Source: Chloroflexi bacterium OLB14
GTDB taxonomy: Bacteria; Chloroflexota; Anaerolineae; Anaerolineales; Villigracilaceae
DNA: 64,000 bases
Reading direction: 5' to 3'
Assembly: GCA_001567105.1 (NCBI GenBank)
Contig: LMZR01000072.1
Coordinates: forward strand, 25,576 to 89,575
Both the position numbers and the translations under genes were made by a program. A model generated the notes under the pieces. The model did no database searches and was not told where the DNA came from. It saw only the letters and a list, made by a program, of their open reading frames with translations. Positions 1 through 33,339 of the stretch are shown here, in pieces. The stretch's first letter is position 1, and each line of letters starts with the position of its first letter.

Positions 1-63
1 AATTGGATTTGCCCATTCTTAAAACGAGCCGCTTCAATAATGCCATCAATTTTCTTTGCCATA
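1..63 (-). CDS. hypothetical protein, N-terminal fragment (gene runs off window start)
   Basis: ATG at 61-63 on minus strand preceded by AAAGGA; reads MAKKIDGIIEAARFKNGQIQ and stays open to the edge. Confidence 0.3.
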
Positions 64-4566: not shown

Positions 4567-5787
4567 TTAGTGCCCGCCACCTGATTGAATGTCGCCGTTG
4601 TAAATTTCTAGGTCTGCTTCGCCTGTTACTTTTAGCACACCCCACGCGCCACGATCAACTCGGGCGAGGGCGTGGTCAACGAGGACGTAGTTACCTGGGT
4701 AATCTACTGTGAATTCAACCATTACTGCGCCACCAGCGGGGACTAATGTGGTTTGTAAACCTTCGGCAGGTGTGGTGACTAAATCGCCTTCACGATAGAC
4801 GCGGTCAAAAATTTCGCCGATGACGTGGAAACTTGAAACCAAATTCACGCCGCCATTACCAACATACATGCGCACGGTGTCGCCAACTTCGGCTTCCATA
4901 TTAGTTGTCAATGCGCCAGTTTTGCCATTGAAGATGACGTATTGTGGAATGCCGTCAAGATAGGCTTGTGTGTCGAAAAGTTGCAAGCCTTTTCTACCTA
5001 GTGCGCCTTCGGTGTAGTATTCGCCTTGCATAACATAAAATTCTTTATCAACAGGTGGCAAGCCGCCTTCAGGTTCAACGAGGATCAACCCGTACATGCC
5101 GTGTGTCATGTGTAAGCCTGGGTTACCAAAAGCACAGTGATAAACATATAAACCTGGGCTCAACAACTTAAAGGTCATTGATTTTGTTTCTCCAGGTGCC
5201 ACAATAGTTGCCGCCGCGCCTCCACCTGGACCTGTGACTGCGTGAAAATCTACGTTGTGTGGGTGCAGGCTGGTTGGGTCGTTGCTGATGTTCAAAAGAA
5301 CAGTATCACCAATTTTTCCACGAATAAATGGACCTGGAATAGTGTTATCAAACGTCCACACATTCATGGTTACACCTGGGGCAATTTCGGTAATTACTTC
5401 AGTCGTAGTCAAATTTAGTTCAATCATGCCGTCTTTGCCATACACTACGGATGCAGGCACATCATTTGGGTCACGTGAAATGTCATCTACGGTGGCGAAG
5501 TTCTTGAAATTTGTGAAGAAGTTGAAAACATTTTCAAACGGCAGATCTGGTTTTTCGCCTGGTCCGTAAGATGTCAATGAAGCGGGGTAAGCCAACGCAT
5601 TGGGCGTTCCATTGGGAATATAAAATGCAACCGAAACACCGATAAACATAATCATCAACGCGGCTGTGATTTTTTTGGAGTGAAATTGTCTCAACACCAA
5701 AAAGAGAAAGATTGCGGCAAATACATAAGCAATGGCTAAACCAAATACTTCTACAATGTATTGCCAGAGATATGAAAAGATTTCCAT
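4567..5787 (-). CDS. nirK: copper-containing nitrite reductase, membrane-anchored
   Basis: HNVDFHAVTGPGGGAA and YVYHCAFGNPGLHMTHGMYG (type 1 and type 2 Cu ligands); two N-terminal TM helices. Confidence 0.9.
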   Translation of the reverse strand: MEIFSYLWQYIVEVFGLAIAYVFAAIFLFLVLRQFHSKKITAALMIMFIGVSVAFYIPNGTPNALAYPASLTSYGPGEKPDLPFENVFNFFTNFKNFATVDDISRDPNDVPASVVYGKDGMIELNLTTTEVITEIAPGVTMNVWTFDNTIPGPFIRGKIGDTVLLNISNDPTSLHPHNVDFHAVTGPGGGAAATIVAPGETKSMTFKLLSPGLYVYHCAFGNPGLHMTHGMYGLILVEPEGGLPPVDKEFYVMQGEYYTEGALGRKGLQLFDTQAYLDGIPQYVIFNGKTGALTTNMEAEVGDTVRMYVGNGGVNLVSSFHVIGEIFDRVYREGDLVTTPAEGLQTTLVPAGGAVMVEFTVDYPGNYVLVDHALARVDRGAWGVLKVTGEADLEIYNGDIQSGGGH

Positions 5788-17171: not shown

Positions 17172-18521
17172 CTAATGTTTGGCATACACTACATATCCAC
17201 GCGGACCTGCAAAGAATTGACCTCGCCCTTCTGTGTTGGTAGATTGCTCTGTTGGGCGGGCTAGATCGTTTCTGCTCCACCAAGCCACAGGGTAGAAAGA
17301 AGCGTTGCTCCATTTTGTGTTGACCCACTCTCCGCGCCAGTCTTCTCCGCGATTATTTAAGACATAAATTAAGCCAGGTTGATTTTCATATCCGCCACGT
17401 TGCATGATGTATAAATCATCTGAAAGATATAAAACAGAAGTATCTCCGCCTGCAAATTTTTCATGCGCATTAACGAGCGCGTCAATGCCATTGGGTGAGT
17501 TTCGCAAAGCTAGGTTGTAATTGAAATAATCTTTCCAAAATACACAGGGGTAACCTTCATGCGTTAAGATGTAGGAATAGGCTAGTAATTTGTCGTTAGC
17601 AATTGGGCGACCTTCATCACGCAAATCATGATTCTCCACAAATGTAACGGTAGTTTGTGGTTGCGCTTTCAAAATCGTTTCACCATAGACGAGGCTTTTT
17701 AAACTAAAGCCATACGAATCGCATAAACTTTTTAATAATTCACGTAATGGAAAATCGAAAGCATCAACTGGGTTTGCATTTGCTTCATTCGCTTCGCCAA
17801 CCCAATGTAAAGTGTTGGTTGCGTTATCCCAATATTCTGCTACGCCAAAAGGTTTGTAATATTGACCGTTACGCATATACCGATATTCTTGAATGGCTGT
17901 AATGGTATTTGCCGCAAAGCCTTTTACAAAATCGTAACGAAAACCATCAAAGCCAACTTCTTCAATTAACCAACGGGCTAACTTTAGTAACTCACCATAA
18001 ACATAGGGATTGCGATGAGATAAATCTGGCATATCTCCAAAAGTCATCTGATCCCATGATTCATACATGCTTGGATGAAACGATTCCCAGTTGCGTAAAA
18101 ATTTTCCGCTTTTAGGGTTGAACTTTGTCCAGCGGGCTTGATTTGTGATTGGATTGACTTCTGGTTCATCTGCTCCGCTATTGTGATTCAAAACCATATC
18201 CGCCACGACACGTAATTTGTGCTGGTGTGCTGTTTCAATGAGTTGATTCAATTCCTGACGGCTACCAAACCAAGTAGGAACACTTCCTTTTTGGTCAAAC
18301 TCACCGAGGTCATAGTAATCATACGGGTCATAACCCATAGATGGACCAAATAAATTGGCGGCTTTATGTACTGGCGGAAGCCATAACGCAGTAAACCCCG
18401 CTTTTGCCAAAAGTGGAATTTCTTGGTTGATATAATTCCACCACTGAAATTCTTTATGATCTTCTCTGGGGCAATCCCAGTAAAAAGATTGTATCATCAC
18501 GCCCATAAGCTGATTCTCCAT
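17172..18521 (-). CDS. GH13 alpha-amylase
   Basis: MIQSFYWD, DMVLNHN, GFDGFRYDFVKG, EYW and FVENHD conserved regions. Confidence 0.85.
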   Translation of the reverse strand: MENQLMGVMIQSFYWDCPREDHKEFQWWNYINQEIPLLAKAGFTALWLPPVHKAANLFGPSMGYDPYDYYDLGEFDQKGSVPTWFGSRQELNQLIETAHQHKLRVVADMVLNHNSGADEPEVNPITNQARWTKFNPKSGKFLRNWESFHPSMYESWDQMTFGDMPDLSHRNPYVYGELLKLARWLIEEVGFDGFRYDFVKGFAANTITAIQEYRYMRNGQYYKPFGVAEYWDNATNTLHWVGEANEANANPVDAFDFPLRELLKSLCDSYGFSLKSLVYGETILKAQPQTTVTFVENHDLRDEGRPIANDKLLAYSYILTHEGYPCVFWKDYFNYNLALRNSPNGIDALVNAHEKFAGGDTSVLYLSDDLYIMQRGGYENQPGLIYVLNNRGEDWRGEWVNTKWSNASFYPVAWWSRNDLARPTEQSTNTEGRGQFFAGPRGYVVYAKH

Positions 18522-29792: not shown

Positions 29793-30005
29793 TTATGTTG
29801 CAACCGTTTCAAATGCTACTCGAACTGCATCTGCCGATTGGTTTGTGAAGTTTAACTTTTCAAAACCAATAACTTTCCCGTCACGGTTTTTCATTAATAT
29901 TATTTCTTCACCAGTTTCTTCGGCTACATATTCTTCTGCTGGATTATCAAACCAAACGGTGAGAGTATTTCCCTCATGGTCAAAATAAACTTTTACTTGT
30001 GCCAT
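29793..30005 (-). CDS. DUF2283 domain protein (antitoxin-like partner)
   Basis: VYFDHEGNTLTVWF ... GKVIGFE pattern. Confidence 0.7.
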   Translation of the reverse strand: MAQVKVYFDHEGNTLTVWFDNPAEEYVAEETGEEIILMKNRDGKVIGFEKLNFTNQSADAVRVAFETVAT

Positions 30006-30230
30006 ACTTGAACTCCTTCTTTAATTGCATCTGTTGGATATGTTGTGATGAGAAAACCTTCATCACTTATCTGCTTTGAAACCGCACATAGTCATTTTGA
30101 CGTCCTCTTCTCGACCAGCCATAATGGGATGTTTAACCGTAACAATTAACTCCCAATAATCTTTGGTGACTCGAACTCGAAAACCAAGAGGTGTCATTAC
30201 TTCAAAAAGAATATCTTTCTCTTTAGTCAT
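29993..30230 (-). pseudogene. degraded small toxin-like gene upstream of DUF2283
   Basis: N-terminal part MTKEKDILFEVMTPLGFRVRVTKDYWELIVTVKHPIMAGREEDVKMT stops at 30063. The C-terminal part LCAVSKQISDEGFLITTYPTDAIKEGVQVWHK is in another frame and ends with TAA overlapping the DUF2283 ATG. The middle appears deleted. Confidence 0.5.
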
Positions 30231-30306
30231 AATTTATATTCTTATTTTACCTTTCTTTTGGTGGGCTTACATTGAAATTTCCTTCCACATCGGTTATAAA
30301 CTTGAC

Positions 30307-31431
30307 ATGAAATTACAAACCGCCCAAATCCAAGTTCCAGAAAATTTTATTGACCTCGGCAGAGGCGACCCAGATTTAGATTTATTGCCATTAAACTTTC
30401 TTCAGCAAGCCGCGCAGAATCGTTTGAGCCAAAGTGACAATGAATTTTTACAATATGGCACAGAAAAAGGTGATGGATATTTTCGGTCTGCTTTTGCGAA
30501 ATTTTTATCAAACAAATATAACTTCACAGTAGATATTGAATCGCTGTTAGTCACTTCGGGCATTTCAGCAGGGTTAGATTTACTGTGTACGCGCTTCACC
30601 AATCCAAACGATATTATTTTTGTAGAAGAGCCGACTTACTTTTTGGCATTAGAAATTTTTGCAGACCATGGACTTAAAGTCGTTTCTATTCAGACCGATG
30701 AGCATGGTTTGGTGATAGATGATTTGATGCTTAAATTGAAAGAGGCAAAACCCAAATTTGTGTATGTGATTCCAACATTTCAAAACCCAGGTGGGCGGAC
30801 GTTGAGTCAAATACGGCGTGAGCAATTGGTTTCATTAGCCAAAGAACATAATTTTTTAATTTTTGCAGATGAAGTTTATCAATTTTTGAATTACACCGAA
30901 ACACCACCGAATACATTAGCATCATTTGATTCGGAACAAGTCATATCACTTGGTTCATTCTCAAAGATTCTTGCTCCAGGGTTACGACTTGGTTGGTTGC
31001 AGACTCATCAATCGCTTATGCAAAGAATTACATCCGCTGGTATGTTGAGTAGCGGTGGTGGGATGAATCCATTTACCTCTGCTGTTGTGCGCGATGTGAT
31101 TGAATCTGGAAATTTGGAAAAAAAAATATTGTATCGCTCAAACAAATATTTACTCAACGCATAAAAAAGCATGGATGAATGTCTGCGGAAAAATATCCCC
31201 TCTGCTGAATTTACAACACCACATGGCGGATATTTTTTCTGGGTGCGAATCCCAAACGTGGATATGACTGAATTAAGAAAGAAAGCAAAAGAAAATTTTG
31301 TTGATCTTCGTCAAGGTGTTTTGTTTTCAAGCCAAAATGGATTGAAAGATTACATGCGTTTGAGCATCTCGTATTATGCTGAGAGTAAATTAGAAGAAGG
31401 CATTTTGAGATTGAAGAAATGTATTAGGTAA
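30307..31431 (+). CDS. class I/II PLP-dependent aminotransferase, interrupted by an in-frame TAA at 31162-31164
   Basis: DLGRGDPD, SFSKILAPGLRLGW (PLP Lys) and PHGGYFFW motifs. Start re-called to MKLQTAQ. The stop lies between A9 (31118-31126) and A6 (31163-31168) runs. Confidence 0.8.
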
Positions 31432-31554: not shown

Positions 31555-31577
31555 TTATACAGCCGTTGGCTGTATAA
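31555..31577 (+). promoter_or_regulatory. perfect 10-bp inverted repeat TTATACAGCC gtt GGCTGTATAA, 38 nt upstream of the motif-pair operon
   Basis: Direct read; further CTGTAT copies at 31499-31530. Confidence 0.4.
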
Positions 31578-31614
31578 ATCATAGTTAGCCCCTTCCTTTA
31601 GGAGAAAGTAATTT

Positions 31615-32034
31615 ATGGATCCGATAACATCTGCAATAATCGCCGCCCTAGCCGCAGGAGTCACTGCGGGATTAACTGATACAGCAAAAAAATTGATTTC
31701 GGATTTGTACAATACGATAAAGGAAAAAATAGGAAAAAAACACGGAAAAGATAGCAAAGCCATAAAGGCTATAAATGATTTAGAAAGTGAGCCTGATTTT
31801 GCGCCATATCAATCTGGTTTACAACAGCGAGTCAATGAACTGAAACTTGATAAAGACTCTGAATTAATAAGCCTAGCCACGAAGTTACTTTCAATAATTC
31901 AGGAATCCCAAAGTAAAGCAAATTTGCAAACAATCCAGAATGTTTATGGAAACGGAAATGCTGTGGCTGGGACTGGCGGAACTGCGACCATAAATGTTCA
32001 ACAAACCAAACCACGAAGGAGAAAAACACGATGA
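31615..32034 (+). CDS. small protein with an N-terminal Gly/Ala-rich hydrophobic helix and a C-terminal G/N-rich motif (Bell/HeLo-like effector candidate)
   Basis: AGGAGA RBS. MDPITSAIIAALAAGVTAGLTDTAKKL, helical middle, IQNVYGNGNAVAGTGGTATINVQQ, basic tail. Confidence 0.7.
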   Translation: MDPITSAIIAALAAGVTAGLTDTAKKLISDLYNTIKEKIGKKHGKDSKAIKAINDLESEPDFAPYQSGLQQRVNELKLDKDSELISLATKLLSIIQESQSKANLQTIQNVYGNGNAVAGTGGTATINVQQTKPRRRKTR

Positions 32035-32945
32035 ACGCACCTGTCCAACAAAAGGCATTTAGTCGGGATTTTTTTGACAGGCAAGACCCAACTGAAGGCA
32101 TCGGGGAATTAATTATTCCCTTTAGTTTCTCCAGTATTTATGATGAAATTGATAAAGACAGCAAATTATCAGAAATTTGCGCCGAACTCTATGATAAGGT
32201 TTTGGCGAAATTGAAATCTGGTGATTTGGGAAAAGACGTTCAAGTTGATGTTATTGACTACAAGGACGCAAAACAAGGTGGAAAGGAAAGTTCAAGAAAG
32301 TATTTGGCAATTACAAGAGAGACTAACCGAAAAACACGAATTACTATTTTGGCTCGTTTTCTGCCCTACGGGAACAAGTTATATGTGGGCGTTGATTCGT
32401 TTGTTTTGGGTAATACAAATTGGCTCAAAATCATAGGAACTATTGCTCTAACTCTCTCCCCATTTGTTTGTTATCTATTCACAGTTTTACCTGCCATAAT
32501 ACAAGGTATGGTTGCCAGCCTTAATCCTTTTGGCGGTGGCGGATACCAAAGCGATACTTTTGGACAAACCTTTTTATTAATCTTACAATATACATGCTGT
32601 TGTATTTTCCCCTGGCTAATTTTTGCGGTTATGTTTCTTTGGTTGAATACGGTCAGAAATTCCAGACATGAAGGCAATTTGCTTCTTGGTTTACGCCAGA
32701 GTTTCAACCAAATTCTTAACACTCGCTCGTTTAATATTGATGATATTTTGATGACATTGAAAAGTGTGTTGCCTCTGATTTTGAGTTCAATTAGAGAAGT
32801 CTTTGAAAAACATGATTTACCTGTAAAATCACTGGACGAATTCACTGCAACCATCCAAACCATAAATAATATCCAAAATGTTTATGGGTCAGGTAATGCG
32901 GTAGCAGGTGCTGGTGGTAAGGCAAGCGTGAGTCGTCCCAAATAA
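32031..32945 (+). CDS. membrane protein carrying the same C-terminal motif
   Basis: ATGA overlap with the upstream stop. Soluble N-domain, 3-4 TM helices, and C-terminal IQNVYGSGNAVAGAGGKASV. Confidence 0.7.
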   Translation: MNAPVQQKAFSRDFFDRQDPTEGIGELIIPFSFSSIYDEIDKDSKLSEICAELYDKVLAKLKSGDLGKDVQVDVIDYKDAKQGGKESSRKYLAITRETNRKTRITILARFLPYGNKLYVGVDSFVLGNTNWLKIIGTIALTLSPFVCYLFTVLPAIIQGMVASLNPFGGGGYQSDTFGQTFLLILQYTCCCIFPWLIFAVMFLWLNTVRNSRHEGNLLLGLRQSFNQILNTRSFNIDDILMTLKSVLPLILSSIREVFEKHDLPVKSLDEFTATIQTINNIQNVYGSGNAVAGAGGKASVSRPK

Positions 32946-33339
32946 AACGGGGCTAACAAAGCGTCCTCAGAAACAGCTAAGTCGGGGTGAGTTGGAAGCC
33001 TAATTTGGCGGCTTTCTTGTGTAAATATTTGAGTTGTCCCTAGCGATAACGCTTTTCATACTCACTGACACTCAACGGTTCGTATTCCACTGCTTTTGTT
33101 CGGCTTCATATCTGCCTATTTGCAGTATACTTCGTCTATCTCTCCTGTTTCTGCTTCCTTACAGGAAAATTTTTTTTCTTGCTTGGGTGCACCTGACGTG
33201 TGGGGACTCGGCGCACATCCCAAGCAGTTCTCGCCCTTTAGCCTTTTTCTGCTCGGACGGCTTCGCCGTCCTCGCCCAGCGCAGGTAACGCAAACCGTTG
33301 GGCGCTTCGCCAGAAATGATTTCAAGGAGAATTAAAATC

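Follow-up and report, generated by a model that had tools for sequence, protein, structure and literature searches.

Positions 31615–32945 of the analysed stretch of Chloroflexi bacterium OLB14 DNA (64 kb in length; called the window below) carry two overlapping open reading frames (ORFs), ORF1 and ORF2, whose products have a C-terminal motif of about 25 residues in common. The database copies of the two are 100% identical and bear the names UZ14_CFX002003155 and UZ14_CFX002003156. ORF1 encodes a Bell-type protein, and ORF2 encodes a predicted membrane protein of a new family. The sequence comparisons given below provide good support for the interpretation of this module as a Bell-containing pair of the amyloid-signalling (BASS) type that is independent of NOD-like receptors (NLRs), with the new membrane protein in place of the NLR. 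We propose that ORF1 and ORF2 are functionally linked solely via their common unstructured C-terminal motif, and we favour ORF2 as an amyloid-gated membrane output module, that is, an effector or a platform, with a probability of about 0.5. The two genes and their parts are as follows.

31615–32034, plus strand: ORF1, 139-aa Bell-type protein with the C-terminal motif (PF20701 match; 44 homologues)
31615–31920, plus strand: predicted Bell domain of ORF1, residues 1–102, starting with MDPIT (five-helix AlphaFold bundle)
31927–32001, plus strand: amyloid-signalling-type motif of ORF1, QTIQNVYGNGNAVAGTGGTATINVQ, residues 105–129, devoid of charged residues, Pro and Leu
32031–32945, plus strand: ORF2, 304-aa predicted membrane protein founding an undescribed family (22 close homologue clusters)
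32031–32420, plus strand: predicted soluble α/β domain of ORF2, residues 1–130, with the folded core at about 32–126 (AlphaFold β-α-β4; predicted local distance difference test, pLDDT, 62–85)
32424–32657, plus strand: predicted membrane hairpin of ORF2, hydrophobic helices at about 132–164 and 180–209, with a short variable G-rich loop and a conserved CCC-x2-PW
32661–32858, plus strand: predicted post-hairpin helical region of ORF2, residues 211–276, with conserved R222, F234, D237, D238, M241 and K244
32859–32930, plus strand: amyloid-signalling-type motif of ORF2, TINNIQNVYGSGNAVAGAGGKASV, residues 277–300, nearly invariant across the family

The shared C-terminal motif

The motif core of ORF1, IQNVYGNGNAVAGTGGTA (31933–31986), and its counterpart in ORF2, IQNVYGSGNAVAGAGGKA (32871–32924), share the common ending IQNVYGxGNAVAGxGGxA. 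The identity is 15/18 at the residue level and 38/54 at the nucleotide level, and 10 of the 15 identical residues are encoded by different synonymous codons. BLASTP aligns ORF1 with ORF2 at E = 8e-9. In a profile–profile comparison (hhalign) the 23 motif columns alone align (E 4e-6), hence the two proteins are otherwise unrelated; wider homology, suggested by an 82-residue BLASTP alignment, was rejected on the same ground. The 64-kb window contains exactly two copies of the motif, as seen in both a six-frame regular-expression search and a sensitive local search with a hidden Markov model, where the next-best match scored 8 bits. These data agree with the original prediction, made from the sequence without database searches, which had noted the 15 identical residues, the ten different codons and the lack of any other relationship between the proteins, and had concluded that the match does not stem from a recent DNA duplication.

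The residues Q, N, G, V and I account for 17 of the 25 positions 105–129 of ORF1, and charged residues, Pro and Leu are absent. This composition agrees with the description of BASS motifs as rich in Q/N/G/V/I and lacking K, P and L, given in the accessible part of (10.1101/2020.01.06.895854). Both tails are predicted by AlphaFold to be disordered. At that, the ratio of nonsynonymous to synonymous polymorphism (pN/pS) across lineages is 0.20 for the ORF1 motif and 0.21 for the ORF2 motif, with synonymous sites near saturation, while the respective values for ORF2 are 0.21 for the N-terminal domain, 0.41 for the hairpin, its least constrained region, and 0.17 for the helical region. Purifying selection on the motif is as strong as on the folded domains.

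The close ORF2 family comprises 22 clusters, all at least 43% identical, and has a nearly invariant motif NNIQN[VI]YGxxNAVAGxGG. The original prediction hinged on conservation of the motif in orthologues, and it is retained in orthologues of both genes down to 43–49% overall identity. Within the close family, the motifs of cognate partners are only marginally more similar to each other than those of non-cognate ones (p about 0.07); at one position cognate partners share the changes G/G, N/S and Y/Y, and at a second one I/I. The wider ORF2 family has three motif classes, each matched inside its own pair, and at this level the co-variation is clear.

None of the BASS1–10 dataset files contains the string NAVAG, GGTAT or TATV, as assessed by exact-string comparison rather than by profile classification. 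The closest relatives of the motif are found in the "class not assigned" Bell/NLR sets of Dyrka et al. One of these, PLS85526 (…QHVQSIIGNYNAQADRGSTAEVRVNQ), pairs with the NLR PLS85529. The N-terminus of another unclassified NLR, EYU71350, reads MTGSGNAVADNGGIAVSG and is comparable to GSGNAVAGAGGKASVS of ORF2. Given its composition, its resemblance to the unclassified Bell/NLR pairs and its constrained disorder, the motif is likely to be of the amyloid-signalling type.

Other carriers of the motif were sought in several collections. A scan of 185,579 species genomes with a degenerate DNA pattern gave 10 matches, whereas about 9 are expected by chance from the information content of the pattern; the single real one is the locus L017, described below. 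An exhaustive HMMER search of 1.84 billion representative proteins yielded ten proteins at E <= 0.001, nine of them cassette proteins and one a repeat-protein artefact; this search reports only matches above about 41 bits, and a diverged motif on the sensor side could escape it. A word-index protein search with the motif profile retrieved ORF2 fragments only, and the NCBIfam sorting-domain models do not match the motif.

ORF1 and ORF2

ORF1 matches the Pfam family PF20701 (HetE-N) over residues 1–119 with the score of 28.5 bits (cut-off 25, E 1.9e-6), and this domain is present in all close ORF1 homologues. From the features shared with it, we take PF20701 to correspond to "Bell", although no text stating this was found. 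Bell proteins are characterized, in the accessible part of (10.1101/2020.01.06.895854), by the length of about 120–140 aa, an N-terminal hydrophobic helix, an acidic residue at position 2 or 3, and a five-helix bundle. ORF1 has 139 aa, Asp at position 2, and a five-helix bundle in the AlphaFold model (helices 3–16, 22–43, 48–58, 63–75 and 82–102; pLDDT 80–88) followed by a disordered tail. The first helix is hydrophobic (Kyte–Doolittle value of 1.62 in the window 3–21), and the chain ends in the basic tail TKPRRRKTR; both features had been pointed out in the original prediction. The invariant residues of the family are M1, T5, A11, L12 and G15, and distant homologues end in other G/N-rich C-terminal motifs.

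The NCBIfam model GapS6a gives a weak yet full-length and co-linear match to ORF1 (E 0.025, 14.9 bits, cut-off 90). GapS6a is the small partner in GAPS6, an anti-phage pair with a TPR+PIN large subunit and the same layout as Bab/Agp. A Foldseek search of the ORF1 model against PDB produced generic helical bundles, with no Bab, HeLo or MLKL among them, so the membership of ORF1 in the Bell group rests on sequence and architecture. Judged by these, ORF1 has a Bell domain and is the bacterial equivalent of the HET-S/Bab executioners of cell death, which target membranes.

ORF2 has no match in Pfam, NCBIfam or PADLOC (Pfam and PADLOC at E <= 1). No NTPase or repeat domain is seen in it, nor a TPR, GreA/B-C or PIN domain; the partner is thus not an NB-ARC/NACHT NLR, as had been surmised, and appears to be a polytopic membrane protein that carries the motif C-terminally. 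Neither the ORF1- nor the ORF2-family profile gave a meaningful match in sequence searches of PDB, and no relatives of ORF2 were present in IMG/VR or in the phage collection. The initial assignment of three to four transmembrane helices has to be corrected, as there are two long hydrophobic segments (~132–164 and ~180–209), modelled as a hairpin. In the AlphaFold model, the long helices occupy residues 131–164 and 173–214, the helical region extends to about residue 285, and the tail is disordered. The region after the hairpin is probably cytoplasmic, given the Lys and Arg residues following helix 2, and we likewise place the α/β domain in the cytoplasm. The overall pLDDT of the model is 59, and its best fold match, weakly SRPBCC- or BamC-N-like, has E 5.6e-3 with the template-modelling score below 0.2; no significant structural neighbour emerged from the fold search. 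ORF2 is, by these comparisons, the founding member of a previously undescribed family of predicted two-helix membrane proteins.

The cassette and its relatives

About nine lineages retain the pair as one unit of 1.4 kb, embedded in unrelated flanks, in accordance with the co-inheritance required by the original prediction. Nucleotide similarity between loci is limited to about 31555–32964, and the cassette starts at about 31555–31584. Most of the related contigs (designated below by numbers, L004 and so on) are short metagenomic fragments; the metagenome scan listed at least six loci. A small motif-bearing gene lies immediately upstream of the ORF2 homologues, mostly overlapping them, with the exception of contigs that start at or within ORF2 (e.g. 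L006). In most lineages this upstream partner is of the Bell type. It is an EAD7-domain protein (E 5e-20) in L004, L005, L007, L011, L012 and L040, and an EAD-like+Bell fusion (P0075) in L029–L031. All three kinds of partners end in the same motif as ORF2, and each locus has two motif copies, never a third.

When unannotated flanking genes were compared across loci, they proved mutually non-homologous, with no conserved third gene. No NLR occurs within 10 kb of the cassette in any locus examined, and a Pfam scan of ten ORFs of the window, the two largest among them, revealed no STAND protein. EAD7 is absent from the window, and the contigs L004, L011 and L040 contain no matching EAD7 sensor. 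A large gene downstream of the cassette in L004 was considered as a candidate sensor and rejected, as by eye (without a family scan) it reads as a secreted pullulanase-type glycosidase. The cassette is, as far as these loci indicate, a mobile two-gene unit whose members are inherited together.

L017 is a 3-kb contig (JAFLBY010000285.1) from a metagenome-assembled genome labelled Candidatus Kapaibacterium, and its cassette is about 91% nucleotide-identical to the OLB14 pair. Either the contig has been mis-binned, or this is a recent horizontal transfer between phyla.

More distant relatives show other combinations. In L032 (5026–7298), the Bell homologue P0047 is located upstream of an EAD7-NB-ARC-TPR NLR and has a common motif with it (E 2e-6). 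The order in this NLR is EAD7, the amyloid-type motif (about residues 100–118), NB-ARC and TPR, that is, the motif is internal and not at the extreme N-terminus. L034 (5002–8935; also L035 and L036) encodes an LRR-Roc-bDLD1 protein of 954 aa, then a Bell protein, and then a 154-aa bDLD1 protein; the latter two have a common motif at both C-termini (…IGDNAKIxGGIHFGxKK, E 4e-16). This layout implies a relay from the sensor via the death-like adaptor and the amyloid motif to Bell. The combination was not found in the accessible parts of the bDLD and BASS literature compared.

A tblastn search against plasmids yielded two remote ORF2 homologues with about 30% identity over residues 10–275, both from cyanobacteria and both with two hydrophobic segments. 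The Phormidium yuhuli homologue WP_252665487.1 (283 aa, plasmid NZ_CP098612.1, L043 5625–8798) has the C-terminal motif QTFTGSVGSVAAKVHGNVTNIN, which matches (E 1e-6, 15/24 identities) the N-terminus of the 122-aa protein WP_252665488.1, encoded in the adjacent, divergent operon. There, the following gene encodes a pentapeptide-repeat protein, WP_252665489.1, with a weak TRADD-N-like match below the Pfam cut-off. An IS1634-family transposase adjoins the set. The Gloeothece citriformis homologue WP_012599391.1 (plasmid NC_011733.1, L045) has 405 aa, with an additional FHA domain at the N-terminus, and its neighbour is a Ser/Thr kinase. The counterpart of its C-terminal motif SINIDTGGGGIIGSVISGLNNTINN is the N-terminus of a protein of about 139 aa that lacks an annotation (E 8e-10, 60% over 25 residues). 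The respective ORF spans the origin of the circular record (about 17651–18083 joined to 1–38, minus strand, ~139 aa from Met18) and is two genes away from WP_012599391.1, the latter being upstream. The small partners from Phormidium and Gloeothece are homologous in their helical domains (E 9e-14) and appear to define a new small protein family. The ORF2 core thus represents a wider family, always with a G/N-rich motif at the C-terminus; this motif varies from lineage to lineage, and each time a neighbour matches it. Further plasmid searches with the cyanobacterial homologues produced no more relatives.

The signals and elements at and around the OLB14 cassette are as follows.

31600–31604, plus strand: Shine-Dalgarno sequence AGGAG of ORF1, 10 nt ahead of the ATG
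32005–32031, plus strand: basic tail of ORF1, TKPRRRKTR, holding the Shine-Dalgarno sequence AAGGAG (32016–32021) of ORF2
32031–32034, plus strand: ATGA start/stop overlap (ORF1 TGA at 32032–32034, ORF2 ATG at 32031–32033)
32950–32963, plus strand: tag GGGCTAACAAAGCG at the 3' end of the conserved cassette, a single copy in the window, recurring in L037 and L008
33187–33307, plus strand: GC-rich structured element of about 120 nt, found with the cassette in some lineages and only doubtfully part of the unit

The ATGA overlap noticed in the original prediction follows directly from the gene coordinates. The codons CGA AGG AGA AAA of the ORF1 tail (32016–32027) double as the Shine-Dalgarno sequence of ORF2, hence conservation of the basic tail may partly reflect translational coupling and not the protein function. 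The tail of this type is kept in the Bell partner of L027 although the Shine-Dalgarno sequence there is outside the ORF, and the EAD7 partner of L011 has such a tail as well. Other lineages have comparable overlaps, ATGA, GTGA, TAATG or 8 nt, and L027 has an 18-nt gap. With such signals, ORF1 and ORF2 are predicted to be co-produced via translational coupling.

The ~120-nt element has a minimum free energy of about -45 kcal/mol, is single-copy in the window, and is found downstream of the cassette in three lineages; it matches neither Rfam families nor tRNAs. In L037 (1438–1559) it directly abuts the tag GGGCTAACAAAGCG; in L008 an LTD-domain gene is inserted after ORF2 and is followed by the tag and the element (4584–4699); in the window, about 222 bp separate the two. 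Scans for Rfam families, tRNAs, promoters and terminators around the cassette gave nothing above background.

The neighbours of the cassette in the window are housekeeping genes: 2-oxoacid dehydrogenase genes, an interrupted aminotransferase gene, an Fe-S oxidoreductase gene and a small DUF2283 gene. The upstream class I/II aminotransferase gene (30163–31431) is split by an in-frame TAA (31162–31164) into two ORFs in the same frame, 30163–31164 and 31171–31431; it is either a pseudogene or the result of an assembly or sequencing error in the metagenome-assembled genome. On the minus strand, between the dehydrogenase operon and the aminotransferase gene, the DUF2283 gene (29793–30005) adjoins a 55-aa ORF (30063–30230), and these two may be a remnant of a toxin–antitoxin-like pair.

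Roles of the two proteins and comparison with known systems

By analogy with Bab/Agp and HET-S/NWD2, for which this was demonstrated, the tails of ORF1 and ORF2 would convert to a shared cross-β fold, each serving as a template for the other. Once a seed has formed, ORF2 and the soluble Bell protein would co-polymerise through their motifs at the membrane, the ORF2 hairpins would cluster and the N-terminal helix of Bell would be freed, and the resulting membrane damage would lead to abortive cell death. Thus, the OLB14 cassette would couple two membrane-acting proteins via one motif. In the sister cassettes, the EAD7 adaptor occupying Bell's place would relay the signal from an unlinked EAD7-bearing sensor; at the OLB14 locus the trigger would be either encoded elsewhere or intrinsic to ORF2. 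The Bell identity, the sharing and conservation of the motif, purifying selection, co-inheritance, partner swapping, co-variation of the motifs at the family level, and the lack of an NLR or a third motif copy in cis are observed; the fold of the amyloid, templating, the direction in which the signal runs and cell death as the outcome are inferred.

We favour ORF2 as the output for several reasons. The position of its motif is invariably C-terminal, which is also true of every amyloid-controlled effector described; the EAD7 partners belong to a class described as recruiting effectors to sensor cores, and a direct analogue, with an adaptor coupled to Bell, is seen in L034; in cyanobacteria, the relatives pair with proteins carrying N-terminal motifs, one of them with a repeat-type protein in the partner operon, and one relative has an FHA input domain; finally, the hairpin is the least constrained region of ORF2. 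A number of observations weigh against this assignment. The OLB14 cassette has no recognisable sensor, so that an effector-only role of ORF2 requires an unlinked trigger, and the search of 1.84 billion proteins (above about 41 bits) found no N-terminal copy of the motif on a long protein. ORF2 occupies the usual gene position of a sensor, downstream and overlapping, and is the constant member of the cassette, which is just as compatible with a sensor role. No obvious defence island surrounds the locus. The co-variation of cognate pairs in the close family is no more than suggestive, at p about 0.07, and the N-terminal motif match of the Phormidium repeat protein WP_252665489.1 is weak (E 0.14), with the TRADD-N score below the Pfam cut-off. 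The ORF2 model is modest (pLDDT 59) and without a structural neighbour, and the ORF1 model retrieved neither Bab nor HeLo from PDB. Amyloid formation, templating and toxicity of these particular proteins are predictions.

The main alternative, which we consider possible though less likely, assigns the opposite role to ORF2, that of a membrane-embedded non-NTPase sensor and nucleator, with Bell as the sole executioner and the two genes as a self-sufficient death switch. A trigger, for instance a membrane perturbation or a phage factor binding the N-terminal domain, would cluster ORF2, and the C-terminal motifs would then template Bell (or the EAD7 adaptor) at the membrane. This assignment explains better why the two genes travel alone, in a self-contained mobile cassette with no sensor in cis in about nine lineages, why the ORF2 gene is downstream and overlapping, in the position typical for NLRs of Bell/NLR pairs, and why ORF2 is constant while the putative output varies (Bell, EAD7, EAD-like+Bell). 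It is also consistent with the strong conservation of the N-terminal and helical domains of ORF2, with Bell-type proteins being established executioners, as demonstrated for Bab, and with the lack of any other motif carrier among the 1.84 billion representative proteins. On the other hand, known sensors have the motif at or near the N-terminus and not at the C-terminus, and ORF2 lacks a diversifying repeat or other typical ligand-sensing region; the partners with N-terminal motifs and the repeat-type protein in cyanobacteria, the FHA fusion, suggesting that the ORF2 core receives signals, and the description of EAD7-type domains as recruiters of effectors to a sensor core all point to the output role. 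If ORF2 did act as a sensor, it might, tentatively, be an immune receptor of a new kind, without any NTPase or repeat domain: the prion-like fold would be nucleated on the inner side of the membrane, where Bell would be activated directly. The 1.4-kb cassette would then be the smallest known self-sufficient amyloid death switch, and the ORF2 core a modular membrane signalling domain connected to at least three motif classes and FHA/kinase input in Chloroflexi and Cyanobacteria.

It is improbable that the tail is a non-amyloid assembly motif, acting for instance by β-strand pairing in a stable hetero-complex outside cell death, such as one for membrane stress or maintenance. The housekeeping genomic context, which is not a defence island, and translational coupling, suitable for a stoichiometric complex, agree with such a role, and so does the fact that AlphaFold yields no structure for either tail, the amyloid nature of the motif being a prediction. 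However, the Bell relatives of ORF1 sit in motif-sharing pairs with NLRs and death-like adaptors, the motif resembles published Bell/NLR amyloid-signalling motifs, EAD7 and Bell are both domains of conflict systems, and near-identical tails suit in-register cross-β templating and would be unexpected for a complementary docking interface. Still less credible is a role of the motif and basic tail in sorting, secretion or anchoring of cargo proteins, as with PEP-CTERM or GlyGly-CTERM signals, a possibility mentioned in the original prediction itself. The layout of ORF1, a motif followed by a G/A/T-rich stretch and an Arg/Lys cluster, is superficially alike, but the post-motif stretch is polar and not a transmembrane helix, ORF1 has an acidic N-terminus and no signal peptide, and ORF2 has no basic cluster, while that of ORF1 partly encodes the Shine-Dalgarno sequence of ORF2. 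Moreover, instead of being widespread, the motif is carried by two proteins in the window and is confined to cassette proteins among the 1.84 billion, and the strict core pattern in the 185,579 species genomes yields the ORF1/ORF2 pair plus chance matches only. The carrier searches, the model scans and the polar tail effectively refute this explanation. Finally, next to no weight is left for the match being a chance event or a functionless remnant of a recent DNA duplication. While the motif is short, of low complexity and G/N/A-rich, this explanation is refuted by the BLASTP E-value, by the codon differences, by the retention of both copies at pN/pS about 0.2 across lineages near synonymous saturation, and by the two remote relatives that repeat the principle with different motifs.

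Amyloid (prion-like) signalling controls cell death in fungi, in animals and, since 2024, in one E. coli anti-phage system. The closest bacterial systems are the Bell/NLR pairs with BASS motifs, in which the NLR gene is usually downstream and overlapping, according to the accessible part of Dyrka, Saupe et al. 2020 (10.1101/2020.01.06.895854). As in these pairs, the Bell protein of the OLB14 cassette is about 140 aa long, starts with a hydrophobic helix and has an acidic residue at position 2, and its G/N/Q-rich C-terminal motif, some 25 residues in length, recurs in the product of the adjoining collinear and overlapping gene. The pairs likewise occur in Chloroflexi, and the motif resembles those of PLS85526/PLS85529 and EYU71350; the original prediction had named these pairs as the model. 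Unlike them, the partner is a 304-aa two-helix membrane protein with no NB-ARC/NACHT domain and no repeats, its motif is C-terminal and not N-terminal, and the motif strings are outside the BASS1–10 datasets.

A second system is Bab/Agp of E. coli ECOR25 with the motif BASS11, an experimentally demonstrated abortive-infection anti-phage system, in which the Agp-type sensor is a TPR-GreA/B-PIN protein; BASS11 has also been reported on EAD7, TIR and CHAT proteins (Ibarlosa et al. 2024, 10.1101/2024.11.07.622273, in the accessible part). Bab/Agp, and probably also GAPS6 of Vibrio GMT islands, similarly consist of two genes independent of NLRs, with a small Bell-like executioner that has a C-terminal amyloid motif and is activated by the neighbour bearing the same motif. 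The differences are the membrane partner with a C-terminal motif, and no defence-island or prophage context seen at our locus; as for GAPS6, the match of ORF1 to GapS6a is below the cut-off.

The fungal HET-S/NWD2 pair and three-gene clusters also have a membrane-targeting executioner gated by a C-terminal prion-forming motif. Two of the clusters, HELLP/SBP/PNT1 and SesA/SesB/HET-eN, contain two effectors with C-terminal motifs and are the closest precedent for the C-terminal/C-terminal polarity. Unlike the OLB14 pair, they have an NLR with an N-terminal motif in cis, and the second effector is a soluble lipase or hydrolase. The proteins of the fungal clusters have no sequence homology to ORF1 or ORF2.

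Two-helix transmembrane effectors of abortive infection, such as SLATT and those of CBASS and Pycsar, combine a soluble regulatory domain with a short hairpin and are thought to act by signal-induced clustering. ORF2 differs from them in having no match to their Pfam and PADLOC models and no PDB sequence or fold match, and its proposed trigger is an amyloid motif or an FHA/kinase input and not a nucleotide signal.

In EAD and bDLD adaptor systems, EAD-type domains recruit effectors to sensor cores (Kaur, Burroughs, Iyer and Aravind 2020, 2021; PMC7159879, PMC8195603, in their accessible parts). The sister cassettes, with EAD7 in Bell's place, and L034, with the bDLD1 adaptor motif matching Bell, are similar to these systems, where homotypic adaptors couple effectors to sensors. 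As far as the accessible text of these papers goes, no amyloid motif is given as the coupling element ("amyloid" occurs in PMC8195603 only in a cited title) and the ORF2 membrane family is not described; another difference is that the OLB14 locus has no NTPase or vWA-MoxR core. Similarly, the accessible literature on bacterial amyloid signalling and EAD/bDLD systems describes no integral-membrane partner, no ORF2 family and no small cyanobacterial partner family.

Published bacterial screens were confined to Bell/NLR pairs. A 2021 review, partly by the same authors as the Bell/NLR study, states in its accessible part that the screens were biased to NLR/executor pairs and asks whether NLR-independent signalling amyloids exist. 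As Bab/Agp has been demonstrated experimentally since then, this question is answered in principle, and with its TPR-GreA/B-PIN sensor, NLR-free signalling is not unprecedented as such. The original prediction did not recognise the architecture as described. This holds for the membrane-protein partner, absent from the literature compared; however, pairing without an NLR has the precedent of Bab/Agp, and L034 is another pair with both motifs C-terminal. The OLB14 locus and its relatives are a compact NLR-free case of amyloid-type signalling. In the ORF2 family, the motifs fall into three classes and the partners into four types (Bell, EAD7, EAD-like+Bell, and the small helical protein with an N-terminal motif), and there is evidence that amyloid motifs and death-like/EAD adaptors can replace each other as coupling devices. 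If our interpretation is true, the amyloid-signalling repertoire gains a membrane-resident component, in a 1.4-kb system tractable in E. coli or Podospora. Hence, compared to the known systems, the cassette is not categorically new; what is new is the partner family, the C-terminal/C-terminal polarity and the set of partner swaps.

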